The notes beneath the pieces were generated by a model. That model saw nothing but the letters and a program-made list of their open reading frames with translations, had not been told where the DNA came from and did not search any database. A DNA stretch of 64,000 nucleotides from Candidatus Dojkabacteria bacterium (lineage in GTDB: Bacteria > Patescibacteriota > Dojkabacteria > SC72 > JAHDCA01): assembly GCA_030583845.1 (NCBI GenBank), contig CP129478.1, forward strand, positions 779,686-843,685. Direction: 5' to 3'. Positions 16,675 to 60,227 of the stretch are shown here, one piece after another. Numbering within the stretch: position 1 is the stretch's first letter; each line of letters opens with the position of its first letter. A program made the translations under genes and the position numbers.

Positions 16675-16770
16675 TAGCTTCTTCCTGCACAGTTTCGCAT
16701 TTAATGAAAATTTCATGAATTTATATCTAGTTTTGCTTGAAGCGATCTGTAGATCGTATAGAATCAAGCT

Positions 16771-17283
16771 ATGAAGAAGAAAGAGAAATCCAGAAAAGAT
16801 CAGAAGCCAAAAAACTATGCGTTTATTGATAGTCAGAATCTGAACCGCGGAGTAATTTCTCAGAAGTGGGAATTGGATTACGGGAAGTTCAGACTTATGC
16901 TTAGGAATAAGTATAATGTCACCCGAGCGTTCCTGTTTATCGGTTATATCCCCAAGAACCATAGATTGTATAGCAAGCTCCAGGCGCTGGGTTATATTCT
17001 GGTGTTCAAGAATGTTCTTGAGATAAAAAGGGGGAATGAGAAGTTGTATAAAGGGAATGTTGATGCGGAGCTGGTCTTACATGCGATGATTGAATTTCCC
17101 AACTATGACAAGGCGGTAATAGTGAGTGGGGATGGTGACTTCTTCTGCCTAGTAGAGTATTTAAGCAAAAAGAAGAAGCTACTCAAAATGATTGTGCCAA
17201 ATCAGAAATACTCCTCACTGTTGAGGGATTTCGCAAGCAATATTGTGAGTATTCAGTCGTTTAAGGGGAAGCTTAAAAAATAA
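16771..17283 (+). CDS. NYN (LabA-like, PIN-fold) domain protein
   Basis: YAFIDSQNL...VIVSGDGDFFCLVEYL carries the acidic residues typical of the NYN/LabA family. Confidence 0.55.
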   Translation: MKKKEKSRKDQKPKNYAFIDSQNLNRGVISQKWELDYGKFRLMLRNKYNVTRAFLFIGYIPKNHRLYSKLQALGYILVFKNVLEIKRGNEKLYKGNVDAELVLHAMIEFPNYDKAVIVSGDGDFFCLVEYLSKKKKLLKMIVPNQKYSSLLRDFASNIVSIQSFKGKLKK

Positions 17284-17392
17284 GAGAGGCATTCCCGCGG
17301 CATACAAGGATAGCCTTTGGTAGTCCTCTCATCGTGATAAGACATTATACACTAAAACAACGCCGATCTCAAATAGATGGATATGCTGCTAA

Positions 17393-17809
17393 TTAGTTAG
17401 GATGCTGTTCATTGAACCACTTCCCAAACTTTGTCCAAACCGAAATATCCTCAGTCTCATCAAAGGAAGAGATCTCTTCACTGTTGCATAAAGCAATACT
17501 CTTGCCATCAGCCCTGAAGGTAACTATCTGATCAATTGGGATACCTTCGCCAGCAGGCTCTGTAAGAATTGTACCCTCTTTGATCGTCTTGAAAATCTTC
17601 ATTTTGTCACCATCTTTGTAAGCAAGTACATCCATGAATGTTATGGATCGGTCTGCTTTATCACTCATTAAGTTTAGAAAATCCTGTGGAGAAAACCAAT
17701 CGGTTACGTAGTGCATAAATGGTCCTGGGAAGCCTTTTAGAGCATGGATATTCCAGCCGGTATCTGTTACTACGACAGCTGATTTCGCGACTTCAAATGC
17801 TTGTTCCAC
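17393..17809 (-). CDS. Ham1/ITPase-like (non-canonical purine NTP pyrophosphatase) C-terminal portion; possibly a frameshifted gene together with ORF 17824..18171
   Basis: VVVTDTGWNIHALKGFPGPFMHYV resembles the Ham1 block (L/V)[22 protein letters not shown]. The GTG start sits only ~20 aa upstream of the motif, so the N-terminal lysine/TGN motif region is missing from this frame. The upstream ORF is in a different frame. Confidence 0.35.
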   Translation of the reverse strand: MEQAFEVAKSAVVVTDTGWNIHALKGFPGPFMHYVTDWFSPQDFLNLMSDKADRSITFMDVLAYKDGDKMKIFKTIKEGTILTEPAGEGIPIDQIVTFRADGKSIALCNSEEISSFDETEDISVWTKFGKWFNEQHPN

Positions 17810-18382
17810 TTTAGAGATAGCAACTACTTCGATAGGCTTGCTTGTTCGTCATCAGTGAGGTCTTGAAAGTTCACTATTTTGTTTAGTATTACCGGATAGC
17901 TTGTCTCGACTACACCTAAAAGCTTCTCAACGTCATTATTTTTACCACCATCTGCATCTGTATAGGAATAGAAACCTGATTCGACTGCTGTGTCTTTAGT
18001 TAATTGCTGTATGTATGTGTTACGCTTCTTTGCAATAAGCACAGAGACAAGCTCATCTCTCTGTTGCAAACGAGTCAAGGCTCCAGCACTTGGGTAGATA
18101 GTGGTGTCGTTTCGGCAGTCTGACGTAAGTAAAGCTGAGGCTAAAGTTACATATACTGAAATCATACACAAGGGTTATTCTTTCAATCGATACGAGCTGC
18201 AAGATGACGGAACGGTCAACTATGCACTCACTGCGTTCGTATCATAGTTGTACTCCTGTCGAAAGCCACTCATTTGCCTCTACGAGTCTACATTCGTGGA
18301 TCTCCAGTTGCGGGGTACCCCGACATCTTGTTCCATCTCTACTAAGTACACGACTTCCTGTCGGGTCTCTAAGTTAGTAGCA

Positions 18383-18459
18383 TGGCGGAACGGACGGGGA
18401 TCGAACCCGCAACCTTTCGCGTGACAGGCGAATGCTCTAACCAATTGAGCTACCGCTCC
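18383..18459 (-). tRNA. tRNA-Asp (GTC), CCA encoded
   Basis: I folded the cloverleaf by hand. The acceptor is GGAGCGG/CCGTTCC with one G-U pair, the anticodon loop is CCTGTCACGCG and the T-loop is GGTTCGATCC. ORF 18280..18492 is a spurious overlap. Confidence 0.85.
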
Positions 18460-18639
18460 ACAAAAATAACGAGCTATTTTCTTTAGGAGCACGGAAAGTA
18501 TATCAAATGTCTAAGCCACAAACAACATCGGGCAGTCCTGCCTGTGTAATCCTATAGTTGAAATACCACGGCTGTCCTATTACAACATCCCATAGAGAGT
18601 GGTACAATGAAAGAGATAAATTTTCATTAACTCTCTATT

Positions 18640-19363
18640 ATGGCTTCAAAAAATAAGAAGTCTAGTCAGGGAAGTAGCGCATCTGCGCAAGGTTCGCAGA
18701 GTGCTTCAGCTTCTCAATCGCAGGGTGTAGAAGACACTGGCCGATCAGTCCTGAGTGTTATGGGCTGGATCATTGCTGGTGTATTTCTGCTACTATTCGC
18801 ATCTTTCGTTTTCTTTGAGAATGATGAGAGCGATGAGCTGAGCCAGGCTACACAGGATAAATATGATGCAGTACAGGAGCTGTATGATACTGTGCGACCT
18901 GCTCTTTCACAGGAAGGACAGGAGGATCTGGATATCGTTATGGAGTATATCGATGAAGATCCAAACAGGCTTAATTTGGAGAAGGATGAGCATCCAGCAT
19001 ATGTTGTTGAGGCATATGATGCAGTAAAGTCCGAGATTGAGGAATCAGTCGGTTCAGGACAAGAGCCAGAAGAGGGAGTACAGGTAGGTGATGAGTACAC
19101 AGTTGTTGGTGTGCTTGAGGAGACAGAAGAGGACACAGTCTATGGTCCGCTTGTTCAAAGTTCAAGACGAAACAACTGGTGCAGACCTTTACTTTGTATT
19201 TAATGGTGATCAGCTAAACGAGATCGAAGATCAATCGATGCTCGGTGAGAGGGTCGAAATTGACATCGTCATAACCGATGTTGAGGGTGGTAAAGTCGCA
19301 TACAATGTGACTGATGGCCCATCATTGGTTGATGATGGCTCAGACGAAGAGTCAGAGGAGTAG
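18640..19363 (+). CDS. Acidic membrane-anchored protein, apparently split by a frameshift near 19140 (ORFs 18640..19203 and 19088..19363)
   Basis: An N-terminal S/Q-rich segment and a TM helix (GWIIAGVFLLLFASFVFF) are followed by an acidic tail. The second ORF continues the same D/E-rich composition (KVQDETTGADLYFVFNGDQLNEIED...DDGSDEESEE) in another frame. Confidence 0.35.
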
Positions 19364-19399
19364 TTTTTAAGAGCACTTTGCTGAACTGATGTAAGTGCA

Positions 19400-19440
19400 G
19401 GGGCGGTGTGTTTTGCAAAACACACCGCCCCTTTTGTTAT
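19400..19440 (+). terminator. Rho-independent terminator hairpin
   Basis: The stem GGGGCGGTGTGTTTTG/CAAAACACACCGCCCC is followed by TTTTGTTATTT. Confidence 0.65.
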
Positions 19441-19469
19441 TTCGCTCGGCATCATATACTTGGAGCCGT

Positions 19470-19800
19470 GGGAAACAGAAAGTTTGTTAAAAATAATGAA
19501 AGCTTTAGATGCGTGAATTGTGGCGTTGATGTGCCAGTTCACCCCAGCAGCTCTCGCGATCATTGTAACCAATGTCTTTATTCTCTCCATGTGGACATCA
19601 ATCCAGGCGATAGAGCAAACCCGTGCAAAGGGATCTTGAAGCCAATAGCTGTGCTCCAAAGCAATAATCGGCAGCAGATCGAATACGAATGTGAGAAATG
19701 CGGTGCTACCGTTAGAAATATCGTAGCGCCTGATGATGATATGAACCGACTGATCGAGGTGTCGGTCCAGCCTTGGGAAGGCAGCACGGCCTCAAAGTAG
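19470..19800 (+). CDS. RNHCP-domain zinc-ribbon protein
   Basis: RKFVKNNESFRCVNCGVDV...SSRDHCNQCLYSLHVD matches the RNHCP family pattern, and a second Cys pair EYECEKCGAT follows. The start is uncertain: the ORF is open from 19408 and a GTG/TTG near 19461-19470 is likely. Confidence 0.5.
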
Positions 19801-19816
19801 ACGATTAAACGGTTGT

Positions 19817-20137
19817 TTATGCAGAAAGTCTTTTAATAGTCTCTACATAGTTCTGCTTTGGCTGTAGGCCGATCATTTTCTCTACCAGCTGACCATCTTT
19901 GAAGAACATAACCGTTGGGATGCTCATGACCTGGTTTGCCTGGGCTGTTTGAGGATTTTCGTCGACATTCATTTTGACTACTTTCGCTTTACCTTTCATT
20001 TCCTCCGCTACTTCTTCAAGAATCGGAGAAAGCATCACGCAAGGGCCACACCAAGGAGCCCAAAGGTCTATTACAACAACGCCTTTTTCATTAAGAACTT
20101 CGGCCTGAAATGTTGCATCTGTTACTTCATTAACCAT
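19817..20137 (-). CDS. trxA: Thioredoxin
   Basis: The active site is WAPWCGPC. The start is taken at the internal ATG (MVNEVTDATF...), which gives a ~106-aa protein. That ATG lies inside a TTAATGAA motif copy. Confidence 0.9.
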   Translation of the reverse strand: MVNEVTDATFQAEVLNEKGVVVIDLWAPWCGPCVMLSPILEEVAEEMKGKAKVVKMNVDENPQTAQANQVMSIPTVMFFKDGQLVEKMIGLQPKQNYVETIKRLSA

Positions 20138-20287
20138 AGTTAAAAATTGTGGATAGTTTAGTCGCCCTATGATAGGACAAGAGTAGGGTAGGGTCAATCA
20201 AAAGTGATTGGCTGGTGTATAGCTAATTTCAGGCGTTTTTAATATAATTACGCCGTAGTAGAACGGTTTTAATGCTATCCTGCTTTT

Positions 20288-21397
20288 ATGGAAAGATTAA
20301 CAATTAATGAAAATGAATATCAGCTTGTAGTGGATCGTGCCGTTGAGGTGTTGGCAAGCGGTGGAATTGTCGTGTACCCAACCGAAACATGCTACGGAAT
20401 TGGCGTTGACGCCACAAATCAGGCGGCTGTCGACCGTTTAATGAAGTATAAGTCGCGTAGAGAAGGGAAGCCGTTGTCTGTGGCGGTTACTGGGCGCGAG
20501 ATGGCTGCAAAATATGTTGAGATAAATGATCTTGCTGATAATCTATATGAAAACTATCTGCCCGGGCCAATAACAGTCGTATCTAAGGGCTTGGGACAGG
20601 TTGCTGCTGGGGTTGAGTCAGAATACGGTACTCTCGGGATCCGCGTCCCGGATTACAAGCTAATACTTGATATCGTTGAGAAATTTGGAAAGCCTGTGAC
20701 CTCTACCTCTGCCAACGTCTCATATAAGCCTCGTCCTTATGATATCGATACATTATTGAAGAATTGCTCGGAGCAGCAGAAAGGCTATCTCGATCTGATT
20801 CTTGATGCAGGTGTATTGCCGAAAAATGAGCCCTCAACAGTTGTTGATACAACTTTAAATAGCTTAAATGTCATGCGAGAGGGCACATTGAAATTTAATG
20901 AAGATATAAGCAACGATAAATTAATCTTGCAGGCTGAGAGTGATAGTGCAGATGAGACCGCCAGGTTTGGAAGCCTTGTGATGCTGAAGCATATAGACGC
21001 AATGCTAGAACAGCCATTTATTCTTGCATTAAAAGGTGATCTTGGGGCAGGGAAGACACAGTTTGTGAAGGGTCTCGCCCAGCAGTTAAAAATTAATGAA
21101 AATGTATCTTCGCCGACCTATACAATCATTGATGAGTACAAATATGAGGTTGGTGAGCATAGAAAAGGGCTGCTCGCACACATGGACACATGGAGGGTAG
21201 ATGGGGCAGAGGAATTCGCACGAACAGGTCTTGAGGGGTACCTTAAGCCTGGCAATGTCATAGCTATCGAGTGGGCAGACAAATTTTATCCAGAGCTACT
21301 TGAAGCTGCAAAGAATTCGAAGGCTAAAGTCTTGAAGGTAAGCTTCGAGCATATCTCCGAGAGTAAGCGGAAAATAGAGGTTTATTCAGAAATTTAA
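20288..21397 (+). CDS. tsaC/tsaE: Fused threonylcarbamoyl-AMP synthase TsaC (YrdC/Sua5 domain) + TsaE (YjeE P-loop ATPase)
   Basis: The N-terminal half carries VVYPTETCYGIGVDATNQAAVDRL...STSAN, the YrdC fold. The C-terminal half carries LKGDLGAGKTQFVKGLA...SPTYTIIDEY...WRVDGAEE, the YjeE motifs. It is a single uninterrupted ORF. Confidence 0.8.
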   Translation: MERLTINENEYQLVVDRAVEVLASGGIVVYPTETCYGIGVDATNQAAVDRLMKYKSRREGKPLSVAVTGREMAAKYVEINDLADNLYENYLPGPITVVSKGLGQVAAGVESEYGTLGIRVPDYKLILDIVEKFGKPVTSTSANVSYKPRPYDIDTLLKNCSEQQKGYLDLILDAGVLPKNEPSTVVDTTLNSLNVMREGTLKFNEDISNDKLILQAESDSADETARFGSLVMLKHIDAMLEQPFILALKGDLGAGKTQFVKGLAQQLKINENVSSPTYTIIDEYKYEVGEHRKGLLAHMDTWRVDGAEEFARTGLEGYLKPGNVIAIEWADKFYPELLEAAKNSKAKVLKVSFEHISESKRKIEVYSEI

Positions 21398-22515
21398 TGA
21401 AATCTATGAGCAAGAGCGCGTTAAAAATTAATGAAAATAGTAGCGAGCCTTTAATCCTAGCTGTAGATACAAGTTGCGATGAGACCTCTGTCGCTATTCT
21501 TCGTGGCAGAAATGTAATAACAAGCATTGTTTCGTCACAAACGGAGCTCCATAAAAAGTGGGGCGGAATCGTGCCACATGTGGCACGTCGTGCGCATGAA
21601 GAGAATCTCCCAAAGGCATATGCTGAGGCTATGAAGCGTGCGGGCATAGATGATCCAAAGCAGTTCGATGCTGTTGCTGTCACCAAGGGTCCAGGGCTGG
21701 CGGTCGATCTGGAGGTTGGGATTGATTTCATTAAGCAGTTAGCAATTAATGAAAATATCCCTCTTATAGAAGTGAACCACATGGAAGGTCATTTTCTCTC
21801 ATCACTCGCGTTGAACTCGGAGGGGCACGGCTCGATAGAAGATTTTAATGAAGATGAATATTTCCCTGCTCTTGGGCTGCTTGTTTCGGGAAAGCATACC
21901 GAGATAGTCTACTCAGAGAAAATCGGGCAGTATAAAAAAATTGGCTGGACTTTGGATGATGCGGCTGGTGAGGCGTTTGATAAATTTGGGAGGATGATGG
22001 GTTTCGGCTACCCTGCTGGTCCTGTAGTGTCAGAGTTTGCAAAGAAAGGTAAGCCGAATGACCTGATTGAGCTTCCAATTCCGCTTGAAAAAAGCAAAGA
22101 TCTGAATTTCAGCTATTCAGGTCTAAAAACAGCCTCGCTTTACCGAATAAACGAGCTGCGTGAGCAGGGTTTGAAGGATAAGGATTTTGCAAATGACTTC
22201 TGTTATGCATTTGTGCAGGTTATTGTTGACTCTATAGTACTCAAATTAGAAAAGGCTCTGCAAGGGTATCCCGAGGCCAAATCTGTCTTCGCTGGAGGCG
22301 GCGTGCTCAAAAATGAAAAGCTTTCGCGTAGCCTAAGCAATATGGTCAGGAGTTATGGGGTGAAATTTAATCTTCCTGATGATAAATATCGCACCGATAA
22401 TGCCGTGATGATAGGGATTGTTGCATATTATAAATATCTACGTGGAGAGATCTCAACTACAACCGAACAGAAGTCTAGGTTAGATAGAAATCCTAGACTT
22501 GAAATAGGCAATTAA
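21397..22515 (+). CDS. tsaD: tRNA N6-adenosine threonylcarbamoyltransferase TsaD (Kae1/YgjD)
   Basis: AVDTSCDETSVAIL and ...VNHMEGH match the family. Its ATG overlaps the upstream stop (TAATG). The N-terminal ~18-aa extension contains the recurrent AATTAATGAAAAT motif. Confidence 0.85.
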   Translation: MKSMSKSALKINENSSEPLILAVDTSCDETSVAILRGRNVITSIVSSQTELHKKWGGIVPHVARRAHEENLPKAYAEAMKRAGIDDPKQFDAVAVTKGPGLAVDLEVGIDFIKQLAINENIPLIEVNHMEGHFLSSLALNSEGHGSIEDFNEDEYFPALGLLVSGKHTEIVYSEKIGQYKKIGWTLDDAAGEAFDKFGRMMGFGYPAGPVVSEFAKKGKPNDLIELPIPLEKSKDLNFSYSGLKTASLYRINELREQGLKDKDFANDFCYAFVQVIVDSIVLKLEKALQGYPEAKSVFAGGGVLKNEKLSRSLSNMVRSYGVKFNLPDDKYRTDNAVMIGIVAYYKYLRGEISTTTEQKSRLDRNPRLEIGN

Positions 22516-22769
22516 TGAAACTTCATTAACCCCCTGTTGGAACACTCATCTTCTACTTTTTTATTTCGATTGTCAATTTCTCTAAATGAAAACCGATGGT
22601 GAGGCTGCTTTCTGTACAAAAATTGTGTATATTTAAACAACGACGCACAATGTGTTGTACCGAACGGCTAAACGGCTGCTTGATGATAAGTAACACCCCT
22701 TCCTGTAATATGTCCACATTCTGTTTAGGAATATGCCCATATAATGCTTAATATTTTAGTTTTTTTGTT

Positions 22770-24440
22770 ATGGCAAGCAAAGTTAAGACACCAAAATATA
22801 TATTTGTTTCTGGAGGAGTAATCTCTGGGATTGGTAAAGGCATCGCCGCATCATCAATCGCATTCTTAATGAAATCGTACGGCTACAAGATAACGATGAT
22901 TAAGATGGATCCGTATCTAAATGTCGACGCTGGTACTATGAATCCGCTTGAGCACGGCGAAACTTTTGTACTAGAGGATGGTTACGAAACCGATATGGAT
23001 ATAGGCCATTATGAGCGCTTTACAGGAGAGCTATTTAATGAAAAGAGCTCTATGACTGCCGGTAGAGTGTTAAAAAGACTCTTAGAAGATGAAAGATCGA
23101 TGGAATATAAAGGCAGGTGCGTCGAATTTGATACGCATGTGCCACTTGAGGTGGTCAAATGGGTCGAAGATGTGCAGAAAACCAATCAATCTGACATAAC
23201 TGTGATTGAGATCGGCGCGACAGTTGGCGAGCTTGGCCAAAGAATCTACCTCGAAGCCAATCGCATCATGAAGGTTTGGTTTCCAAATGATGTAATTCAT
23301 GTACATGTCTCATATCTTCCAATCCCGAAAAATCTCGGCGAGATGAAGAGCAAGCCCGTCCAGCTTTCAGTGCAGCTGCTCAATGGCGCCGGAATTAATC
23401 CTGATTTCATAATTGCACGTTCTGAGCTTCCAATTGACGATATCAGACGGGAGAAGCTTAGCTTCAAGTGTTATGTGCCAAAAGATAACGTCATATCTGC
23501 ACCTGACATCGAAAATATCTATGAGGTGCCATTGAACTTTGAGAAAGATGAGCTCGGCCGAAAGCTTCTCGAGAAATTCGGCCTACAGGCCAAGAGAAAT
23601 GGCGTCTTCGAAGAGTGGAAAGAGAAATTTGCAAAATTATCAGATGCCAAAGAGAAAGTTACCATCGGGATCGTCGGAAAATATTACAAGAGTGGCGATT
23701 TCGACCTGAAGGACTCATATGTATCTGTAATTGAGGCAATTCGACATGCAGCATGGGCTCAAAACCTACTACCAGAGATCAAATGGTTTGTTGCAGACGA
23801 TTTTGAAAATGACGAAGCCATGCTTGAAGAATTAAAAAGTGTTGACGGAATAATTGTGCCGCAGGGTTGGGGCAGTAGAGGTGGTGAGGGGAAGATTAAA
23901 GCAGTTCAGGTTGCCCGTGAGAGCAAGATCCCCTATCTCGGTCTATGCTATGGGATGCAGATGGCTGTGATTGAGTACGCAAGGAATGTTGCCGGAGTTA
24001 GCGGTGCAAATTCTGAAGAGATCGATGAGAAAGCTGCCGATCCTGTAATCCACATAATGGAAGAGCAGAAAAAGCATATCGCTGAAGGTAACTATGGTGG
24101 CACGATAAGACTCGGCGCATGGCCGTGCAAAGTCGAGAAAGGATCGCTACTGGAGGAGATGTATAAAAAGTACTCAAACGGGCTATTTAATGAATTGCCC
24201 GTCGTCCAAGAAAGGCATCGCCACAGATATGAATTTAACAATGAATACCGAGAGGCACTGAGCAAGGCTGGCCTAAAGATCACAGGCACTAGCCCGGATG
24301 ATAGGCTGGTTGAGGCAATTGAGCTTGATAAAAAGGATCATCCATTTTTCGTCGCGACACAATATCATCCTGAGCTGAAGTCGCAGTTTATAATGCCGCA
24401 TCCGTTGTTTATGGGCTTTATAGCTGCAGCTAAGAAATAG
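22770..24440 (+). CDS. pyrG: CTP synthase
   Basis: The N-terminal synthase domain has KYIFVSGGVISGIGKGIAASS. The C-terminal GATase domain has LGLCYGMQMAVIEYARNV and HRHRYEFN. Confidence 0.9.
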   Translation: MASKVKTPKYIFVSGGVISGIGKGIAASSIAFLMKSYGYKITMIKMDPYLNVDAGTMNPLEHGETFVLEDGYETDMDIGHYERFTGELFNEKSSMTAGRVLKRLLEDERSMEYKGRCVEFDTHVPLEVVKWVEDVQKTNQSDITVIEIGATVGELGQRIYLEANRIMKVWFPNDVIHVHVSYLPIPKNLGEMKSKPVQLSVQLLNGAGINPDFIIARSELPIDDIRREKLSFKCYVPKDNVISAPDIENIYEVPLNFEKDELGRKLLEKFGLQAKRNGVFEEWKEKFAKLSDAKEKVTIGIVGKYYKSGDFDLKDSYVSVIEAIRHAAWAQNLLPEIKWFVADDFENDEAMLEELKSVDGIIVPQGWGSRGGEGKIKAVQVARESKIPYLGLCYGMQMAVIEYARNVAGVSGANSEEIDEKAADPVIHIMEEQKKHIAEGNYGGTIRLGAWPCKVEKGSLLEEMYKKYSNGLFNELPVVQERHRHRYEFNNEYREALSKAGLKITGTSPDDRLVEAIELDKKDHPFFVATQYHPELKSQFIMPHPLFMGFIAAAKK

Positions 24441-28303: not shown

Positions 28304-30986
28304 TTAACCTTTTCTTAACCTCTTAGGCGAGTAGTTGTACAGCAAATCCCTCCAGCCCTGTACTGCGGCATAAAATACAGGGAAGGCGAAGAGTATTAGT
28401 GCCATGCTAGAAAGCAGCCCAAATATGATTGTAAATGCAAGTGGCTCCCAGAATGGCTCCGTAAGTGCTAGCGGTACTAAGCCACACACCGTCGTTAAAG
28501 TTGTGGTCAGTATAGGTCGAGTTCGAAGCCGTACAGCCTCAGAGATTGCTTCGGTTATGTCTTTGCCCTCTCGCCTGCGCGCATTTGCGTATTCAATCAA
28601 CATGATTGTGTTATTCACTACAATACCGATCAATCCTGTGAGACCGATCACTACAAAGAAGCTCATCGGGTTACCAGTTAAGTACAACCCCAAGAATAGT
28701 CCAGGGAAGCAGAAAGGTATTGCCAAAAGGATCAGCAGCGGCTGTGAAAAGGAATTGAACTGAAGCACTAGCAAGCCATACATTACTATTAGCGCAATTA
28801 TTCCTGCCAATGCCACGGATGCGAACGACTCGGCATTATCACTCTCCTGTCCAGAATCAAATCCAACGGTGACCCCTGGGTACCTACTGTTCAGAAGATT
28901 TTGATCAAATTCCGCTTCGATTGCATTTTGCAACTCAATAATTGTCGCGCTGTCACTACCATCACTGAACTTAACCCTGATGGTTGCGTACCTGTCGCCA
29001 TTTTTACGGCTCACTTCTAGCAGGGATTCACTCTTTACATCTGCAACTTCAACATCGTTATCCAGCTTAACGGTTGGTATATATCGTGCGATGTCATCCG
29101 TGGCATTCTCAAGCATCGTCTGATCTTCAGAATAAATCTGCATAGCAAAAGGGAACTGTGTTTCAGGTGGACCTGCTGATACGACCGCTGTGTTAATAAT
29201 AGCACCATCAAAATCCTCGGTAGCGACATTTAATTCCTTTGCAATCTGTGTAGAGGTTATTTCTCTCTCAGTAATGCCGTTCAGGTGAACCATTAATTGG
29301 GCACTCCTGCTGTTTCCAACGAGATATGTTACCTCCTCAATCTCCTCCCGGCTCTTCTGCAGTAGAATATTTTCAACCTGAATGCTAAGTTTTCTAGCGC
29401 TCTCAATAGCTGTTGGTTGGTCAAATGATATAGAGACAGTAATCTCTTCAGAATCCTTAGCAGGTGCAAAGTATGAGAACCCGATTAAGCTGGAGAAGTA
29501 TATGCCCACTCCAATTAAAACAATAGACATCACAATGGCAAATAGTTTGTAGAGCCTATTTCTTAGCGCAAATTTGACATACGACTCGAGTATCTCCCCA
29601 AAGCGGAGAATCTTGCTAGGAACATATTCAAATACCCTCTCGAAGATTGATCTGTTATCCGCATTACCGTTGCGATCCTTCAAGAAATGCTTCGATATGA
29701 ATGGCAGGATAGTTAAAGCAATTAGCAGCGAAAGTAGCAGTGAAATGATAACTGTAATTGGTAAGATCTTGATAAACTCTCCAAGTACCCCTTCGATAAA
29801 TACAAGCGGCACAAATACAAGCACTGTAGTTAATGTCCCTGAGATATCCGCGACTCCAATGTCCCCGATTGCCTTTCTTACGGCCTCTACTCCTTTATGG
29901 CCTTTCCTCTTATAGTAATCGATAGCTTCAACTACTACAGTCCCATCATCTACAAATAGGCCAAGCACAAGCACAAGCGAGAATAGTGAAATTGTATTGA
30001 GGGAAAGACCAAAAAGTGTGAATGTAAGGAATACCGCCCCAAGCGTCATCGGTATGAAAAGTGCGAGTATGAGTGCCGATCGTAGATCTATGAATAGCAG
30101 TAGAATAATAAAGATTGTCACTATTGCGGCCACAGCATTTTCCTCTAAGGATGAGATCTGTGTCTCGAGCTGCTCTGCAGGATCAGATGTGTATGAGACA
30201 TCAATATCTTTGAGCGCCTCGCTTTCGAGTGCCTTCTCCACGCTGCCTCCTCACGGATTCGGAGAAATCAAGAGTGCCGATGTCTTGGTTTTTCTTCATT
30301 ATTCCGATAACTATTGTGTCAAACGCCCGTTTTTCAAATGCCCGACTACCATTACCTTCTACAGTAATGAGTCTTGAGAACGAGTTTTGCACGACAACCT
30401 CTCTGTTCTGGCCGAAATCGTAGGTCTCTACAAACTGCTCTTTCACATTTGCGTGTTGCACCATGTCGTTTCTCTCGATTTCTGTTGCAAGTAACTCACC
30501 TCTTTCCTGAAGCTCTTCCAATCCAAGCTCATCTGAATATATTGAGATCAAGATGTCATTTTCACCATCAACAAGCCCAGGCTCTGGGATTGATATCTGT
30601 GACTCGTTGGGCAAATTTAGCGACTCCACGCGCTCTGCCACAAGCTCTTCAACTTTGTATGGATCCGAATTATCTTGATCTAGCGTGATGACCACAGTTG
30701 AAACATTTGCACTAGAGCTACTGTTAATCTCTTCTACCTCCTCTAGCTCAAGCACTGTATCGTAGATTGGGATTGTAATGTCGGCTTCAGTCTTGGCTGG
30801 GTCGCCTGATAGATATGGTGTAACAACGACAATGTACGGTATGTTAATTACCGGAAAGCCCTCTTTTTTCAAAGTATTGGTGTAGGTGTAGAAACCCATT
30901 GCCAGGAGGGAGAGGGTGATAAGTATGGTAAACCTGCTTCTATTGACAAAGAAGAGGCTTACTTTTGTAATAATATTGTCTTTCAT
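28304..30986 (-). pseudogene. RND (AcrB/HAE-type) efflux transporter split by one frameshift near 30235 (ORFs 30201..30986 and 28304..30241)
   Basis: The N-terminal ORF has the RND start (TM1, then PVINIPYIVVVTPYLSGDPAKTEADITIPIYDTV). The downstream ORF continues with ...LFIPMTLGAVF...GLSLNTISLFSLVLVLGLFVDDGTVVVEAI and the C-terminal TM bundle. The two ORFs overlap in different frames. Confidence 0.7.
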
Positions 30987-35288: not shown

Positions 35289-36155
35289 ATGTTTAAGCGT
35301 TTAAAGTATAACCTCATTATTGTTTTTACAGTCGTTGTGCTGTTTATACAGTTCATTACCGGCTTTGTGCTGATAATGTTCGAGGTGTATCTTGCCGATC
35401 TCACTTTTGACCAGTATATCCATAAGCTTGGATTCCTACTTTCTGAGGTATCGGTAACAACAATCGTCATATTGATGGTGGGCTATGTTTTCGTACAGGA
35501 AAATTTCAAGCCGGCCGAGGATATGGTGGCCAGGCTTAATCAATTTACCCAAGATGCCTCGCACGAGCTAAGGACACCACTGAGCAACGCGAACATAGCA
35601 CTGGACCTCGCTCTCAGATCCAAGAAGTATGAAGAGTATATTCGTGAGGCTAAGATGAGTGTTCGTGATGCAAACAATATTGTCGATAAGCTGCTGGCCT
35701 TGGCGAAGCTAGATAAGATGTCGCTGGACCGGAACAAATTTATGGCTTCTGAGAGTGTGATGCAGGTGATGGATATGTTCAACGAGCAGATTGCTGACAA
35801 GGGAATAAAAGCAGATGTGAAGCTGGATGAGAAGAAGGAGTTGGTCGGAGATTCTGGATTATTCAAGATTCTTGTCGCAAATCTGGTCGACAATGCAATT
35901 AAATACAATCTCCAAAATGGTGAGCTCAAAGTTAAGCTGACGAGTAAGAAGCTTTCAGTCGCTAATACTGGTAAAGAGATAAATGCTGTAGAGATGGGCA
36001 AGATATTCGATCGCTTTTATCAGACCGACGAGTCTCGATCAGATAAGGGATACGGGATTGGTTTGGCTGTTGTAAAGAAGATTGCTGACCTGCACAAATG
36101 GGAAATTCAGGTTGAAAGCAAAGATGGATTAACCACTTTCATTCTGGAGTTTTAA
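35289..36155 (+). CDS. Sensor histidine kinase (short, 2 TM)
   Basis: The H-box is QDASHELRTPLS and the G-box is GYGIGLAVVKKIADLH. It lies downstream of the response regulator gene. Confidence 0.8.
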   Translation: MFKRLKYNLIIVFTVVVLFIQFITGFVLIMFEVYLADLTFDQYIHKLGFLLSEVSVTTIVILMVGYVFVQENFKPAEDMVARLNQFTQDASHELRTPLSNANIALDLALRSKKYEEYIREAKMSVRDANNIVDKLLALAKLDKMSLDRNKFMASESVMQVMDMFNEQIADKGIKADVKLDEKKELVGDSGLFKILVANLVDNAIKYNLQNGELKVKLTSKKLSVANTGKEINAVEMGKIFDRFYQTDESRSDKGYGIGLAVVKKIADLHKWEIQVESKDGLTTFILEF

Positions 36156-36350
36156 TGATAATTTCATTAACATTAGGTGAAATTGTAGTAGTAGAGGATC
36201 TCTATTATGGGGAGATGTTACACCTATTGGCGCTGGAATACCTCAATTAGCACCTCTAAAAAAGCTTTTAAGTATAATGTAAACCTTAACCGCACCTTAA
36301 AGGGTAACGGACTACACTGATAATATAATTAAATTGTCAGGGAGGGCTAA

Positions 36351-36551: not shown

Positions 36552-36662
36552 CCCCGCTAACCTATAGAGCATTGGTAAGGTTAAAATCTTAAGACAATTT
36601 AACACCTGTAATAAAAAACGTTGTACCTGCGCAAGCTTTATTATCATTATAGGTTAGCGGGG
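36552..36662. repeat. Inverted-repeat element, family CCCCGCTAACCTATAG (copy a)
   Basis: 15-bp terminal inverted repeats CCCCGCTAACCTATA...TATAGGTTAGCGGGG enclose ~80 nt. The right arm creates the spurious GTG start of the trxB ORF. Confidence 0.65.
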
Positions 36663-40199: not shown

Positions 40200-40242
40200 C
40201 CCCGCTAACCTATAAGTCGATTCGACTTATAGGTTAGCGGGG
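40200..40242. repeat. Inverted-repeat element, family CCCCGCTAACCTATAG (copy b, minimal)
   Basis: It is a near-perfect 43-nt palindrome CCCCGCTAACCTATAAGTCGA/TTCGACTTATAGGTTAGCGGGG. A partial extra arm CTATAAGTTAGCGG lies at 40142. Confidence 0.65.
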
Positions 40243-40262
40243 CTTTAATTGCTACACCAAAA

Positions 40263-48113: not shown

Positions 48114-48489
48114 AAAAATTTGTAATAAATTTACTCCTAGCTTTGCTCTACTAAAATTATACTTGTAATTATGGCTCTGTTCAAATATAATTCGAAGAAG
48201 CGACCAGGGAGAGTGTGAGCCTGGGTTTTTGAAGTGACCTCAGCCTTTGTGCTGTGACATGAGTGAAAATTTAATGAAAAGCGGTTGTAGTTTTACAACA
48301 ATCGAGGTGGCACCACGGTGATAATCGTCCTCTTTCTATTGAAATTATTTAGTAGAAAGCGTAGGGCGATTTTGTTTTTTAGCTTCTTAAACAGGTGGCA
48401 GTCGGAAGCTTATTAATTGCTAGGGCAAGGCCAATTGTTTAAGAATCCAAAAAACAAAAATAAGTGAATTAATTTTTGAGTTACACAAA

Positions 48490-50733
48490 ATGGAAACTAA
48501 ATTGGACAGAATATTGGCTCGGTCAACGAGCGAAAAAACCGGAGAGAAAGTTAAAGTATCAGGCTGGGTGGCATCGGTCAGAGACCACGGCCAGCTCCTC
48601 TTTCATCGACCTACGAGACTGGTCGGGACGTGTACAGCTAGTCGTAAACCCTGAGAACAAAGCAGCATTTGAGGTAGCCAAATCATCTGGGCAGCGAGTT
48701 TGTAATATCCGCAACAGGCGAGGTCGTTGAAAGAGACAACTCACTTCTAAATGATAAGCTTGGATACAGGAAAAATCGAGATAATCGTAGACGAGCTGGA
48801 GTTAATCAACAAGACAAAGCCTTTGCCATTCCCGATCGACACAACTGGCCATGAGATCGACGAAAACACTCGACTCGAAGTACCGATACCTAGACCTACG
48901 CCGCGAACGACTCAAGACAAACATGATAAAGCGACACAAGCTGATGCTTGCCGTCCGTCAGTGGATGGACAAGAACGGCTTCACCGAAATTACCACGCCG
49001 CTTCTTACAAGCACATCACCTGAAGGTGCAAGAGACTTCATGGTCCCTTCAAGAATTCATAAAGGGAAATTCTATGTGTTGCCACAGGCACCGCAGCAGT
49101 TTAAGCAGCTGCTCATGGTCGGTGGTATCGATAAATACTTCCAGATTGCACCTTGTGCGCGTGACGAGGACCCAAGAGCCGACAGGCATTACGGTGTGTT
49201 TTATCAGATCGACATTGAGATGAGCTTCCCGACAATCGACAGGCTTTTCTCAACCTGTGAGAACCTGATCAAAGAGACATATAAAACAGTCGCTCCCGAC
49301 AAGGAGATTATGGAATTTCCATTCCCTCGCATTCCACATGCTGAGGCTATGGAGCGTTTCGGCTCTGACAAGCCAGATATCAGATTCGGACTTGAGATGA
49401 AAGATATAACTGAGGTTGTAAAAGACAAAACTGAATTTAACATCTTCAATAGCGCAGAGGTAGTAAAAGCCATTGTGGCTGAGAGGGCAGGTGAGTGGAG
49501 TCGAAAAGAGATTGAGGATATGGAAACATTTCGCTAAAAGGTGAAGGCGCTAAGGGCTTGGCCTACACAAAGGCAGCAGGAGGAAAGCTCGAGGGTGGAA
49601 TTGGTAAATTCCTAGAACCGGTAACAGCAGAGCTTATCGAAGCAACTGGAGCCAAAGATGGTGATCTAATCTTTTTTGGTGCCGACGACCGCAAAATTGT
49701 AAATAAAGTATTAGGACAGGTACGTTCAAAGCTTGGAGACCTACTCGGCTTAAAAGATCCGAAGAAGTTGGCCTTTGCATGGATTACCGACTTTCCAATG
49801 TACGAAATAGACGAAAAGACGGGCAAAATCGACTTTGCTCACAACCCATTCTCGATGCCGAAAGGTGGGCTCGAGGCATTCAACAAGGAAAACCCGCTTG
49901 AGATCGAGTCAAACCAGTACGACGTCACTCTAAACGGCTTCGAGATTCTATCCGGCTCTATTCGAAACCACGACCCAGAGCTGATGGTGAAGGCATTTGA
50001 GATTGTTGGATACGGCGAAGAAGAGGTGAAGCGAAGGTTCGGCGGACTTTACAACGCATTCCAGTATGGAGCACCTCCACACGGAGGCTGGGCTATCGGC
50101 ATCGACCGTATGTTTATGGTATTTACTGAAGAGCCAAACATACGAGACGTTTATGCATTCCCGACAGCTGCAAACGGTGAAGACCTAATGATGAATGCAC
50201 CAAGCGAGGCATATCCAGAAGATCTGCAGGTTCTCGGCATTGAGATATCCGACAAGGGCGATCTAGTTGTGAACCAGATCCGAGAGCTAATAGACGGATC
50301 AGGAGCTGAGTACAAGTTTATGGAGCACGAGCCGGTACGCACATCAGAGCAGGCGGCTAAAATCCGAGGCACGAAAGTGAGTGAGGGTGCCAAGGCATTA
50401 GTGCTCAAATCACTTGAATATGCTGGCAAATACATAATGGTAGTCATCCCTGCTGATAAGCAGCTCGACCTTGAGAAAGTTGAAAAGGTGCTAGGCGAGA
50501 AGTTTGATGTCGCACCTGCCGAAGAGGTTGAGAGCTACACAGGAGTACAGATGGGTGGTGTGCCACCATTTGGTAGGCTGCTAAAGTTGGAGGTGTATTT
50601 CGACAAGCAGATGTGGGAGAAAGAGATGTCAGCCTTCAACTGTGGTAGGAAAGACAGATCCATCTATATGAAAACTTCTGATTTGATAAAACTTGTGCAG
50701 CCTAATAAAATAGCTGAAGAGTATACCAAGTAG
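48490..50733 (+). pseudogene. aspS: Aspartyl-tRNA synthetase with at least 5 frameshifts in its N-terminal half
   Basis: Collinear AspRS segments lie in different frames: METKL...VSGWVASVRDHGQLLF (frame 1), FIDLRDWSGRVQLVVNPENK (frame 2), SEFVISATGEVVERDNSLLNDKL (frame 0), TGKIEIIVDELELINKTKPLPFPID (frame 1), KYRYLDLRRERLK...FYVLPQAPQQFKQLLMVGGIDKYFQIAPCARDED...FR (frame 2), then YGN..GAKGLAYTKAAGGKLEG...FFGADDRKIV...GGLYNAFQYGAPPHGGWAIGIDR through to the end (frame 1). The shifts are near 48603, 48690, 48770, 48870 and 49527, mostly single extra bases in 2-3-nt homopolymers. Confidence 0.75.
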
Positions 50734-50799: not shown

Positions 50800-51891
50800 A
50801 TGGATAATAAAGCTGCCGAAAACAAGAGCTTGATAAATAGTAGCTTCCCATCTAGGATGGACGATAAGAAGATAGACAATGTCGTCAATCAGGTACATCG
50901 GTCTACTGGCTTTCACTATCCGAGGCGGAGACGACCAATTGTCATTGGCGCAGGAGTATTGCTGCTTCTGACTATATCCGGAATGGCAATCGCAAAGGCT
51001 GGATTTAGCAAGCCCGAAGTGCAATACCTCAGAGTAAGTAGCCCAGCTGAGAATTTCAGCGAAGAGCTCCCGGATGTTGCCGAGCCGTTTGATATGGAAC
51101 TTCGGGTGAGCGAATTAGATTTCACTGAAATAGATGCTTCATCAGTTTATGCCTACAATCCGGAATCGCATCAGGTTTATTATGAGAAGAATATCGATGA
51201 GAAGAGGCAGATCGCTAGCATAACCAAACTAATGACAGCAACAGTAGTGATAGATCAGTACGATTTTGAAAAGGAGATCGAGGTTACAGATGAGATGCTT
51301 GAGAGTTTTCCTGATGAGTTAAGTCATGTGATTGGCTTTGAAGACGGAGATAAGTTGAGCGTGCAAGAGTTGTACGACGCGATGATGATCAACTCATTTA
51401 ACGATGCTGCTGTGCTTTTGGCTGTTCTGCACCCATCAGGATACGATGGATTCGTCGCCGAGATGAATTCTCGTGCAGAGCAACTTGGCATGGCTAATAC
51501 GAAATTTGCGAACCCCCAAGGCTTCGATTCTGACAATAGCTATTCAACAGCTCGTGATGTACAGCGACTTGTCGGCTATGCGATGCAGTATGAAGAGATA
51601 ATGAGTGCAGCTCAGACTGTTAGCTCGCAGATGACGATAGAGCATGCAAATGGTGAAGTTGAGCAGGTCGACCTTGAATCAACCAACAAACTTCTTGGCA
51701 GACTGAAATATATGAAAGGGCTTAAAACAGGGTATACAGCTGAAGCAGGACCATCTCTTGTGGGTTACTTCGACGCAGGTGCAGAGGAGAAACTTGTAAC
51801 AATCGTCTTGGGTGGGAATGATAATCGATTTGATCTGACTGAAGAGCTTTACTACTTGCTTGGCAAGTCCTACTCACCCCCACCCCGCTAA
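50800..51891 (+). CDS. D-alanyl-D-alanine carboxypeptidase (PBP5/6-like, peptidase S11)
   Basis: An N-terminal TM precedes the SxxK motif SITK, the SxN motif SFNDAA and the KTG motif KTGYT. Confidence 0.8.
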   Translation: MDNKAAENKSLINSSFPSRMDDKKIDNVVNQVHRSTGFHYPRRRRPIVIGAGVLLLLTISGMAIAKAGFSKPEVQYLRVSSPAENFSEELPDVAEPFDMELRVSELDFTEIDASSVYAYNPESHQVYYEKNIDEKRQIASITKLMTATVVIDQYDFEKEIEVTDEMLESFPDELSHVIGFEDGDKLSVQELYDAMMINSFNDAAVLLAVLHPSGYDGFVAEMNSRAEQLGMANTKFANPQGFDSDNSYSTARDVQRLVGYAMQYEEIMSAAQTVSSQMTIEHANGEVEQVDLESTNKLLGRLKYMKGLKTGYTAEAGPSLVGYFDAGAEEKLVTIVLGGNDNRFDLTEELYYLLGKSYSPPPR

Positions 51892-51998
51892 CCTATAGCG
51901 ATGTCGGATCCCCAGATGATTAATTTCTGTTAAGGCCTTCAGGATAAAATCAGGATAATTTCCCTTTCTATATCCGCTATAGGTTAGCGGGGTGGGGG
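51876..51998. repeat. Inverted-repeat element, family CCCCGCTAACCTATAG (copy c)
   Basis: 24-bp TIRs CCCCCACCCCGCTAACCTATAGCG...CGCTATAGGTTAGCGGGGTGGGGG enclose ~75 nt. The left arm supplies the TAA stop of the carboxypeptidase gene. Confidence 0.65.
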
Positions 51999-58246: not shown

Positions 58247-60190
58247 ATGAGTGGAAATACAATCACGAGTCAAGAAGGCGAGAGGTCCGAGGCAGGTCAA
58301 AGCAATGGTATTAGTGCAACTCTGTCTGAAGCCGCACGATCTTATTCTGGTAATGACGAAGATAGGTTGAATATAGGAAAGATTTATGAACAGATATATG
58401 GTGGAAGCGACGCTGCACCTAAGGAAGAGCTACTGTCAGTTAGGACATATAACAGTGTGACTGCTTTAGCAACAGTATTGCAAGAGTGGTATGCGTTAGC
58501 GGGTGACGTACAGCCACCTCACCCTTCTAGAGATGAAATCAATAAAAAGATGGCTGATCAAAGCAATCGGCTTTATGCAGCAATGCTGGTGGAAGTAGAA
58601 GAAGGCTCGGCTGAAAGGAGGCTTCTGGAGTCAGCGCTAAAAAGTGCGAGCACTTTGGATGGTGAAACGGAGCAAGAGGTAGTCTCATCAGCGCATAAGA
58701 GTGTAAATACTGCTCGTGACAAGGCGATAGCTGAGTTACGTCAGGCAAAGGAAAACGCCACAAAATCACTTACAAACAAAGAAGTGCAGTATAGAGAATT
58801 GGAGGAACGTATGTCTCGGGTTATAGAAGATAGGGAGGCGGAAGATGGTACAATACCGAAAGTTAGCGAGCTAGAGGCAGAGACCAGAAGGTATGTAGAA
58901 CTCTCTCAGCAGGTTCTCCCACTTCTAGTTAATTCTGATCTCTCAGATCAGCAACTGTCCCAAGAGATTGACTTGAAAATTCAGGATATCGCTTTAATGC
59001 CTACCGTACCTGAAGGTACTTCCCCACTTGATACTAGGAAGTTGCTTTTAAATTATATCTCTCGCGTTGGTCTCGAATTAGATGATATTACAAGCAAGTT
59101 AGAAAGTGACAAAATCAGCTGGACTGGCAGTAATATTCGTGATGCAATAACTCAGCATAGATCTCAAAGCCAATTGCCAGGATTACAAGATATTTGGGGA
59201 GTAATTTCAGCGTATGAAACCTCGAAAGCCTTATTTGACAGTAGAATTTCTGATGAGACATCTGTTTTACAAGAGATCCTTGTAGAATTGGGGCTGAGTA
59301 GAGAAGATGTACATGGACTAACAGTTGGTAATCTTGCTGCTCTCGATGGTTGGATAACATCACTAGGGGGTATGGAGATTTCTGCACCAGATCCAGTTCA
59401 TGTAAATAGAATCCTTGAAAGTAGGAGACAATTAAACACCTTTGCTTCAGATCAGCAAGTTGTATCTGAAACGAAGGTGGCAGGAGTCGAAGAAAAAGAA
59501 CAGCAGATAGCCCACCTAGCGTATGATGCTCTGGTTGCGGTGGAGAAAGATCTTGAGCTGAAAGAGAAAGTAGCTCGACAAGAGGCAGCAAATGCGGACC
59601 TTCAGAGACAAATTTTAGAACTTCAAGCGCAGCTTGCTGCTTCAACTGCTCAGATTGCCGATCAAGAGGAGACAATAGCGAATCTCACAGCGCGACTAGA
59701 GACACTTCAGAGTGCACCGGCAGTTGTGAATGGGCAAGTTACCCCGGACGCCAGTTCAGTTACCACAACTGTTACTGCAGGTGAACTAACACAGGATGAG
59801 GAAGCAGCTCTGCAAGATCTCAAGGCGAGGATGGAGAATCTAGGGATTAATACCCTTACCGCGCCTGTTACGCCCTTCGTGGATGTAATCAAACTCCTTG
59901 GACGCCGAAGTGAGCCATTATATGTAGTCTTGAGCAGTAATGGCAATTCTGTACAAATAGATTTGGTAAAGGTCGCAAAATTTGTTGATCGAATCGTGTC
60001 TAATGATCGTGTCAACTTGTCTAATTATGTGGGGCAGTATAGCATCCAAAGCAAGCAAATAGTGCAGAGTCTGATAGGTGACCAAGAATTGTATACAATC
60101 CAAGGAAGTGAGGGCTACAACCCACCGCAGATCTACACATTCGTTTATTACCTCATCCAAGGCTATGCGAAGCGTGTCGGAAAGATTTAA
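58247..60190 (+). CDS. Large coiled-coil hypothetical protein (647 aa)
   Basis: It has long heptad-like stretches (e.g. ELQAQLAASTAQIADQEETIANLTARLETLQ) and no enzymatic motif. Confidence 0.4.
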   Translation: MSGNTITSQEGERSEAGQSNGISATLSEAARSYSGNDEDRLNIGKIYEQIYGGSDAAPKEELLSVRTYNSVTALATVLQEWYALAGDVQPPHPSRDEINKKMADQSNRLYAAMLVEVEEGSAERRLLESALKSASTLDGETEQEVVSSAHKSVNTARDKAIAELRQAKENATKSLTNKEVQYRELEERMSRVIEDREAEDGTIPKVSELEAETRRYVELSQQVLPLLVNSDLSDQQLSQEIDLKIQDIALMPTVPEGTSPLDTRKLLLNYISRVGLELDDITSKLESDKISWTGSNIRDAITQHRSQSQLPGLQDIWGVISAYETSKALFDSRISDETSVLQEILVELGLSREDVHGLTVGNLAALDGWITSLGGMEISAPDPVHVNRILESRRQLNTFASDQQVVSETKVAGVEEKEQQIAHLAYDALVAVEKDLELKEKVARQEAANADLQRQILELQAQLAASTAQIADQEETIANLTARLETLQSAPAVVNGQVTPDASSVTTTVTAGELTQDEEAALQDLKARMENLGINTLTAPVTPFVDVIKLLGRRSEPLYVVLSSNGNSVQIDLVKVAKFVDRIVSNDRVNLSNYVGQYSIQSKQIVQSLIGDQELYTIQGSEGYNPPQIYTFVYYLIQGYAKRVGKI

Positions 60191-60227
60191 TGAAACCCCT
60201 ACACTGATTTAGGTGTATAATCCCACC

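Follow-up and report, generated by a model that had tools for sequence, protein, structure and literature searches.

A single protein carries two usually separate enzymes from the universal pathway that makes N6-threonylcarbamoyladenosine (t6A), a modification of tRNA, in a genome of Candidatus Dojkabacteria (WS6, Patescibacteria/candidate phyla radiation, CPR). The window analyzed here is a stretch of 64 kb, which corresponds to 6% of this 1.04-Mb genome. Within it, the gene tsaCE (20288–21397, + strand; 369 codons plus a TAA stop) joins a TsaC domain, the synthase of threonylcarbamoyl-adenylate (TC-AMP), to a TsaE domain, the P-loop ATPase of the pathway. It is directly followed by tsaD (21397–22515, +; 372 residues), which starts on the last base of the tsaCE stop codon. 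The identity of these parts and the reality of the fusion are in our view close to certain. As an explanation of the whole locus—a real fused tsaCE, a coupled tsaD, and a hand-over of TC-AMP by means of the tether—we regard this reading as the best one and as probable, while the functional hand-over role, taken by itself, stands at slightly less than an even chance.

Domain composition of the fused protein

The initial annotation of this DNA had recognized a YrdC/Sua5 and a YjeE domain in one open reading frame (ORF) of 369 residues, which is borne out by domain searches with Pfam and NCBIfam. Pfam places Sua5_yciO_yrdC (PF01300) on residues 20–199 (E 1.1e-45) and TsaE (PF02367) on residues 234–362 (E 1.1e-28; profile positions 12–127 of 128), and the second ORF matches TsaD with an E value of 5.5e-73. 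All three NCBIfam equivalogs score above their cut-offs: TIGR00057 on residues 8–202 (171.3 bits versus 123.2), TIGR00150 for TsaE (84.5 versus 60.1), and TIGR03723 for TsaD (320.7 versus 296.1). Together with the fold matches described below, this delimits a TsaC domain at residues 8–202 (20309–20893, +) and a TsaE domain at residues 212–369 (20921–21394, +). The interdomain linker in between—from the end of TIGR00057 at residue 202 to the first TsaE strand (E212–218)—comprises ~9 residues (~203–211; 20894–20920, +).

An alignment of 120 homologues describes the conservation within both halves. In the TsaC half, K55, S141, and N143 are invariant and R57 is nearly so, and these residues form the motifs K55-x-R57 (20450–20458, +) and S141-x-N143 (20708–20716, +). 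In the TsaE half, G250, G253, G255, K256, T257, S275, P276, H298, D300, W302, E328, and W329 are invariant, with T277 and R303 nearly invariant. Hereby, all motifs expected of TsaE are present: the Walker A motif GxxGxGKT (G250–T257; 21035–21058, +), the SPT(F/Y) loop, H-x-D-x-[YW]-R, and EW; the Tyr of the customary YR pair is replaced by Trp (W302–R303). TsaD bears its metal-binding H128-x3-H132 motif (H128-M-E-G-H132; 21778–21792, +). At the level of sequence, both halves are shown to be intact—a predicted TsaC-type TC-AMP synthase and a predicted TsaE ATPase in one polypeptide.

An AlphaFold2 model calculated from the same alignment has a mean predicted local distance difference test (pLDDT) of 91.5 and a predicted template modeling score (pTM) of 0.62. 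It is least confident at residues 181–200 (10-residue block means of 77 and 69), that is, at the C-terminal end of TsaC directly upstream of the linker. In a Foldseek search against the PDB, the N-terminal half superposes on E. coli YrdC (1hru) with a target-normalized TM-score (TMt) of 0.82 and a root mean square deviation (rmsd) of 2.7, and the top matches are Sua5 structures, namely the TsaC domain of Sua5/TsaC2. The C-terminal half matches HI0065 (1htw, TMt 0.79) and Thermotoga maritima TsaE as solved in the TsaBDE complex (6s84 chain B, TMt 0.77), whereby the PDB TsaE chains align from their own residue ~22–28 to residues 235–240 of the query. A solved chain holding both the TsaC and the TsaE half was not found in this search of the PDB.

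The fused protein carries no SUA5 domain, yet it is not a single-domain protein either, and it should be described as bearing a TsaC domain rather than as a canonical TsaC protein. In a PDB sequence search, YciO and E. coli TsaC score about equally, and YciO and TsaC have active-site residues in common and are inseparable by motif (bioRxiv 10.1101/2023.12.18.571875). Hence, the KxR and SxN motifs alone cannot exclude a YciO-like role, since YciO carries them too. A role of the N-terminal domain in t6A synthesis is nevertheless by far the likeliest, given its equivalog score, its fusion to TsaE, and the neighboring tsaD.

Spread and origin of the fusion

Assemblies of two independent read sets (DRR779146 and DRR859400) match the window at 100% identity across 3.8 kb and 2.7 kb, respectively. 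Neither in these two assemblies nor among the relatives was a stop between the two domains encountered: all 120 best matches from a collection of 5.8 billion proteins hold both Pfam domains, at 51–100% identity and lengths of 360–385 residues. An assembly or sequencing artefact is ruled out by the identical independent assemblies and by hundreds of full-length relatives. The named proteins among these 120 matches belong mostly to Candidatus Dojkabacteria. One of them (P0001) is identical to the present protein and is annotated as L-threonylcarbamoyladenylate synthase of Candidatus Dojkabacteria, and some JGI product names give both domains.

When one genome per GTDB species was scanned, relatives appeared in 474 species-level genomes, most of them Candidatus Dojkabacteria/WS6, and the best 80 of these align across residues 1–366—the whole fusion. 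Cluster representatives searched exhaustively with HMMER yielded 255 clusters at E <= 1e-30; among the best 149 of these, at least 114 clusters (formed at 50% identity) carry TsaC and TsaE motifs, down to ~32% identity. The linker is short in all homologues. Some members of the family are longer, at 403–486 residues (P0128, P0133, P0144, P0145, P0147, P0150, P0172, P0180, P0196, P0218, and P0261), and most of these have low-complexity sequence inserted into the TsaC loop that follows the LPGP motif, at about residues 100–113 of the protein in the window.

Standalone TsaC relatives of 201–206 residues exist as well. They are 45–52% identical to the N-terminal half of the fusion and end where its linker begins (~residue 200). 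Their genes (L086:10001–10609, L087:270–875, and L088:6001–6621) lie in unrelated contexts, beside a gene for a class I aminoacyl-tRNA synthetase or downstream of def-fmt, and neither tsaE nor tsaB nor tsaD was found near them in these three loci. Because such standalone relatives exist and sit in other contexts, the fusion is derived and clade-specific.

These searches show that the arrangement is ancestral to a large clade, in which the fusion is old and fixed. The initial annotation had called the architecture unusual. This holds against model bacteria, but not as a peculiarity of the present genome: the fusion is a lineage trait, and across the 474 species-level genomes it is the norm of the clade. 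No mention of a TsaC–TsaE fusion and no account of the t6A genes in CPR bacteria were found in the open-access papers that were searched, so that the architecture, although visible in databases, is apparently undescribed.

Coupling of tsaCE to tsaD

At the junction, the bases read GAA ATT TAA TGA AAT. The TAA stop of tsaCE (21395–21397) and the ATG of tsaD (21397–21399) have base 21397 in common, which confirms the TAATG overlap (21395–21399, +) first seen in the initial annotation. A second in-frame ATG lies 9 nucleotides (nt) downstream at 21406 and was chosen by a gene caller in an identical assembly; the start of tsaD is hence either 21397 or 21406.

The neighborhood of both genes is kept in related loci. 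In 74 of 83 of these, tsaD is the next gene after tsaCE, and in 65 of the 70 loci where both ends could be located its ATG lies 4–20 nt inside the 3′ end of tsaCE. The overlap in relatives is mostly 8, 11, or 14 nt, and the exact TAATG is particular to the present genome. Hence, the conserved feature is the close coupling and not the TAATG itself.

The only GAGG lies 15 nt before the ATG of tsaD. Since a Shine–Dalgarno-like sequence at a useful distance is missing, tsaD is probably translated by ribosomes that terminate on tsaCE. Both genes are presumably also co-transcribed; co-transcription and coupled translation would therefore lead to three activities being made together. The initial annotation had gone further and proposed an obligate stoichiometric coupling. 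For TsaC and TsaE, a 1:1 ratio is indeed held by the fusion, but the ratio to TsaD is not covered by it, and the proposal as a whole is conjectural.

As a side observation, tsaCE and tsaD are among the 4 of 54 gene ends in the window that carry an in-frame tandem stop TAA TGA (21395–21400, 22513–22518, 36153–36158, and 60188–60193).

A possible hand-over of TC-AMP and alternative explanations

In the cycle proposed here, the fusion would tether the source of the very unstable TC-AMP to TsaE, which, together with ATP, would dock where the TsaD active site opens. As long as the TsaE moiety is bound, TsaD would take up TC-AMP, and ATP hydrolysis would then free the TsaC–TsaE protein from TsaD. 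This release would vacate the site for tRNA and for the transfer to A37. The gene for TsaB presumably lies elsewhere in the genome.

This is the cycle of Missoury et al. (2018; PMC6009658), which was put forward for separate proteins. In their work, TsaE occupies the entrance to the TsaD active site, where it shuts out tRNA while TC-AMP can still get in. They proposed that TsaE "prepares" TsaD for TsaC, that a short-lived TsaBDE–TsaC complex passes on TC-AMP, and that ATP hydrolysis releases TsaE and lets tRNA bind. E. coli TsaC has bound TsaB and TsaD in pull-downs (PMC4615747). A conserved TsaC–TsaE fusion fits this model as an outcome that evolution could fix under it.

Several points weigh against such a hand-over. 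With a pTM of 0.62, the relative orientation of the two domains is not fixed, and hence no channel between them can be claimed. Within TobZ, the TsaC-like module is bound to the face of the Kae1-like module that lies opposite to the TsaE side of TsaD (PMC6009658), and a tether of 9 residues might therefore keep TsaC from a docking site like that of TobZ. In streamlined genomes, moreover, fused genes occur often and can be neutral for function. The termination–reinitiation coupling of tsaD to tsaCE is plausible from the gene geometry only, and the hand-over by the fused protein is deduced from sequence and literature. Also, TsaB is needed for the cycle, and tsaB was not found within 10 kb of tsaCE in 80 species (83 loci, 1.1 Mb; phmmer with TsaD and a sequence of E. 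coli YeaZ as queries).

The strongest competitor is a neutral by-product of genome compaction, in which an adjacent tsaC–tsaE pair lost the stop and the spacer between its genes. The two domains would then act independently and TC-AMP would simply diffuse, with no hand-over. The genome is in line with this: at 1.04 Mb it is small and gene-dense, and overlapping genes are numerous. The pTM of 0.62 suggests no fixed interdomain contact, and t6A genes are also fused to unrelated partners (TsaC/HemK, Alr–YjeE), which makes a fusion alone weak evidence for a mechanism. Against this, none of the 120 best homologues and none of the 80 best genomes lacks the fusion, which is found down to ~32% identity; its linker is uniformly short, and its partners share a pathway in which they take consecutive steps. 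We consider the neutral origin possible but unlikely.

A second alternative dispenses with TsaB: tsaB would have been lost, and the TsaC–TsaE protein together with a TsaD homodimer—as in the mitochondrial Qri7—would suffice as a two-gene t6A system. The initial annotation had noted that no tsaB lies in the window, and this stands: among all six-frame ORFs only tsaD was matched by phmmer with the same two queries, and among 52 ORFs searched with Pfam, tsaD is the sole match to PF00814, with no second one. Besides this lack of a TsaB-like ORF in the window and up to 10 kb from tsaCE in 80 species, the gene order is suggestive, as the Gram-positive cluster often reads yjeE-yeaZ-rimI-ygjD and here tsaE is followed by tsaD as though yeaZ and rimI had been removed. 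However, absence from the window says little, since the window covers only 6% of the genome. TsaE binds at the TsaB–TsaD interface and touches both TsaB domains (PMC6009658). A survey found TsaE to be lost first in symbionts, with TsaB and TsaD retained by the cited Mycoplasma species; both TsaB and TsaE are missing from just two Mycoplasma species, and no genome was listed with TsaE but without TsaB (PMC4615747). The TsaD of the window, moreover, scores above the ordinary bacterial equivalog cut-off. The TsaE binding site and this pattern of loss favor a tsaB gene elsewhere in the genome, which we take to be very likely, and leave the TsaB-less system quite improbable.

An artefact, or the decay of one domain to a YciO-like paralogue or a dead TsaE, is largely refuted and highly improbable: YciO and TsaC are not separable by motifs and score alike in the PDB sequence search, but the independent assemblies are identical, hundreds of relatives have the same ORF, both domains exceed their equivalog cut-offs with catalytic motifs invariant or nearly so, and the TsaE fusion and the tsaD adjacency tie the N-terminal domain to t6A.

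The hand-over via a tethered TsaC–TsaE protein can also be taken further. In this extended form, the fusion is a "Rosetta stone" which tells that TsaC acts on TsaE-bound, tRNA-free TsaD, so that loading and ATPase reset are one event; a stronger version has no TsaB at all and makes TsaC–TsaE plus TsaD a new minimal t6A machine, and separately the repeated sequence word TTAATGAAA described below is taken as a possible factor-binding site. We regard this set of claims as speculative and rather doubtful.

The fusion bears on two points of bacterial t6A synthesis: how TC-AMP is transferred from TsaC to TsaD, and why multiple turnovers need an ATPase such as TsaE that blocks the tRNA site. The clade-wide and ancient covalent link between TsaC and TsaE is independent comparative evidence that both act at the same step, as has been proposed. 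A naturally tethered protein could also render the transient TsaC–TsaBDE complex tractable for structural biology. For the Dojkabacteria, a poorly characterized CPR lineage, the fusion adds a defined molecular trait. The absence of tsaB, if true, would mean a new minimal architecture, which is unlikely on the present evidence.

A recurrent sequence word in tsaCE and tsaD

Both genes are also the place of a repeated sequence word, considered here as the 13-mer AATTAATGAAAAT, its 9-mer core TTAATGAAA, and the 8-mer TTAATGAA. The initial annotation had called the operon a hot-spot of this motif, and rightly so: all four exact copies of AATTAATGAAAAT in the 64 kb lie on the + strand within tsaCE and tsaD, in one codon phase that encodes I-N-E-N. 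For the comparison, three related loci are used, L001 to L003, at 84%, 70%, and 67% protein identity, with L001 being the nearest. Copy 1 (20302–20314) lies at the N terminus of TsaC, within an exact run of 16 nt shared with L001. Copy 2 (21091–21103) lies in TsaE between the Walker A motif and the SPT loop, in exact runs of 19 nt with L001 and 15 nt with L002. Copy 3 (21426–21438) falls into the N-terminal extension of TsaD, and copy 4 (21744–21756), farther into tsaD, includes the right arm of an inverted repeat, TTTCATTAA-N11-TTAATGAAA (21726–21756, +). This inverted repeat is also present in L001 at 2720/2739, and in its region stretches of 14 and 18 nt match L001 exactly amid saturated synonymous sites. 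At the end of tsaD, a perfect hairpin TTAATGAA-AC-TTCATTAA (22512–22529, +) begins in the stop codon with its tandem stops TAA TGA; it was not found at the tsaD end of L001.

The word is far more frequent than expected. With up to one mismatch, AATTAATGAAAAT has seven matches in the window versus 0.19 expected from shuffles. For TTAATGAAA, 18 occurrences compare with 0.88 expected, and 12 of them fall between 16.7 and 23.1 kb, which is 10% of the window. The word as TTAATGAA(A) ranges over 16701–24187, most densely over 20087–23043, and over 129–5192 in L001. TTAATGAA is enriched in L001 as well (11 versus 0.5 expected), but not in more distant relatives.

The positions of the word are partly kept in L001. 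In comparison with L001, the same codon is used at only 41% of identical residues, and hence synonymous sites are saturated. Nevertheless, the three motif sites shared with L001 are the second, third, and sixth longest exact nucleotide runs in both genes (19, 18, and 16 nt), and in comparison with L002 the TsaE motif site is the second longest. For eight of the 16 TTAATGAA sites that the window has between the thioredoxin gene trx and pyrG, L001 carries a copy at the homologous position, and these shared sites cover two reading frames, one antisense copy, and intergenic DNA. As word positions are kept despite saturated synonymous sites, selection on the nucleic acid is indicated in this genus. 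The 9-mer TTAATGAAA, extended to AATTAATGAAAAT, may be where a lineage-specific factor binds the DNA or RNA and regulates the trx-tsaCE-tsaD-pyrG region, and as an alternative reading the word may be an uptake-signal-like sequence.

Other causes of the motif were considered, and none is supported. The peptide together with codon bias is unsupported: in the window ATT makes up 34% of Ile codons, AAT 59% of Asn codons, and GAA 36% of Glu codons, and ATT-AAT-GAA-AAT is expected for only ~4% of INEN peptides, with AAT-GAA being slightly preferred for Asn–Glu pairs. A common RNA hairpin or a mimic of the tRNA anticodon arm is not apparent, as folding z-scores lie between +0.9 and −1.45 without a shared structure. 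Internal sigma-70 promoters were not found on the + strand, and out-of-frame ORFs from the embedded ATG reach only 7 to 35 codons, with no conserved alternative ORF among them. A clade-wide operon element is not at hand either, as the exact 13-mer is missing from 81 of 85 loci.

The extension at the N terminus of TsaD, which holds copy 3, is itself of note. It comprises 19 residues, MKSMSKSALKINENSSEPL (21397–21453), and is lacking in the nearest relatives, of which the closest starts with MKPLILAVDTS. Within it, 18 nt, TTAAAAATTAATGAAAAT, are identical to the motif copy in the TsaE domain.

Neighboring genes and other features of the window

Upstream of tsaCE lies a divergent thioredoxin gene (trx; 19820–20134, −; Pfam Thioredoxin, E 4e-30), and downstream of tsaD follows pyrG, encoding CTP synthase (22770–24440, +; Pfam CTP_synth_N, E 8.4e-93). 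The order thioredoxin (−), tsaCE, tsaD, pyrG, enolase (−) is kept in the relatives at 84%, 70%, and 67% identity, and a thioredoxin gene is found at the matching position in L001–L003, L084, and L085. The thioredoxin ORF was listed as 19820–20197 (−), from a TTG at 20197 (126 residues). Since the products of the relatives have 106–107 residues and an ATG at 20134 gives MVNEV..., the true start is probably 20134.

Elsewhere in the window, three intergenic inverted-repeat pairs (36552–36662, 40200–40244, and 51883–51994) have in common an arm of ~17 nt, CCCCGCTAACCTATAG/CTATAGGTTAGCGGGG. One of them forms a long perfect hairpin, while in the other two ~80 nt separate the arms. The three pairs resemble a small repeated element of a palindromic or miniature inverted-repeat transposable element (MITE)-like kind, and L001 has a related GCTAACCTATAGGTAG close to position 200.

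A class II synthetase resembling aspartyl-tRNA synthetase is apparently split (48476–50730, +). One piece (48851–49534) covers positions 4–185 of the tRNA-synt_2 profile, and another (49558–50730) covers the GAD remainder and positions 185–306. At its C terminus, the latter also has a YbaK-like aminoacyl-tRNA editing domain (PF04073, E 2.5e-28), an unusual extra part. An RND/AcrB-family transporter likewise occupies two overlapping ORFs (28307–30986, −), one at 30204–30986 with profile positions 3–121, and one at 28307–30241 with the profile from position 311. L003 has an intact single RND/AcrB gene of 902 codons, and the split gene may be a frameshift or a pseudogene.

Comparison with known systems

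The canonical machinery of E. coli, B. subtilis, and T. maritima—TsaC (YrdC), TsaE (YjeE), TsaD (YgjD), and TsaB (YeaZ), with the TsaB2D2E2 complex represented by PDB 6s84/6n9a—comprises the same three families with the same catalytic motifs as found here. The chemistry is presumably alike: TC-AMP is made, the transfer to A37 follows, and ATP drives the TsaE cycle. In the present genome, however, TsaC and TsaE are one polypeptide, tsaD overlaps their gene, and tsaB is absent from the cluster, whereas TsaC of model organisms is a free enzyme and a stable TsaC–TsaBDE complex has not been isolated (PMC4615747, PMC6009658). According to SyntTax (2013), YrdC had not been reported by then to interact directly with the YgjD complex.

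Sua5/TsaC2 resembles the fused protein in that an extra C-terminal domain is attached to a TsaC domain after the same boundary. There, this appended domain is the Rossmann-like SUA5 domain, and here it is the P-loop TsaE. Accordingly, Sua5 superposes on the TsaC half only, with an rmsd of 2.5 over 191 columns that rises to more than 12 if the alignment is forced to full length.

Fusions of t6A proteins have been reported from bacteria: YeaZ–RimI–YgjD in Coriobacterium, Alr–YjeE in Clavibacter, hydrolase–YeaZ in Dehalococcoides, and TsaC/HemK in Mycoplasma genitalium. As here, they stem from Gram-positive or reduced genomes and have been taken as "Rosetta stone" evidence for interaction, but none of them links TsaC with TsaE.

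TobZ, HypF, and the Pandoravirus TsaN are alike in that a fusion puts an adenylate-forming module near a transferase. In TobZ and HypF, the labile intermediate is passed through a channel, while no channel is formed in TsaN (PMC10484737). These three fuse the synthase to the transferase itself. In the Dojkabacteria, the partner of the synthase is the ATPase accessory subunit, and the transferase remains a protein of its own that is probably linked by translation.

The archaeal Kae1–Bud32 proteins (e.g., MJ1130 and HVO_1895), fused in 25 of 53 archaea, are likewise a t6A fusion with a regulatory subunit of the ATPase/kinase type that occurs widely within one lineage. Bud32 has no relation to TsaE, however, and it is joined to the transferase, whereas TsaE of the Dojkabacteria is joined to the TC-AMP synthase.

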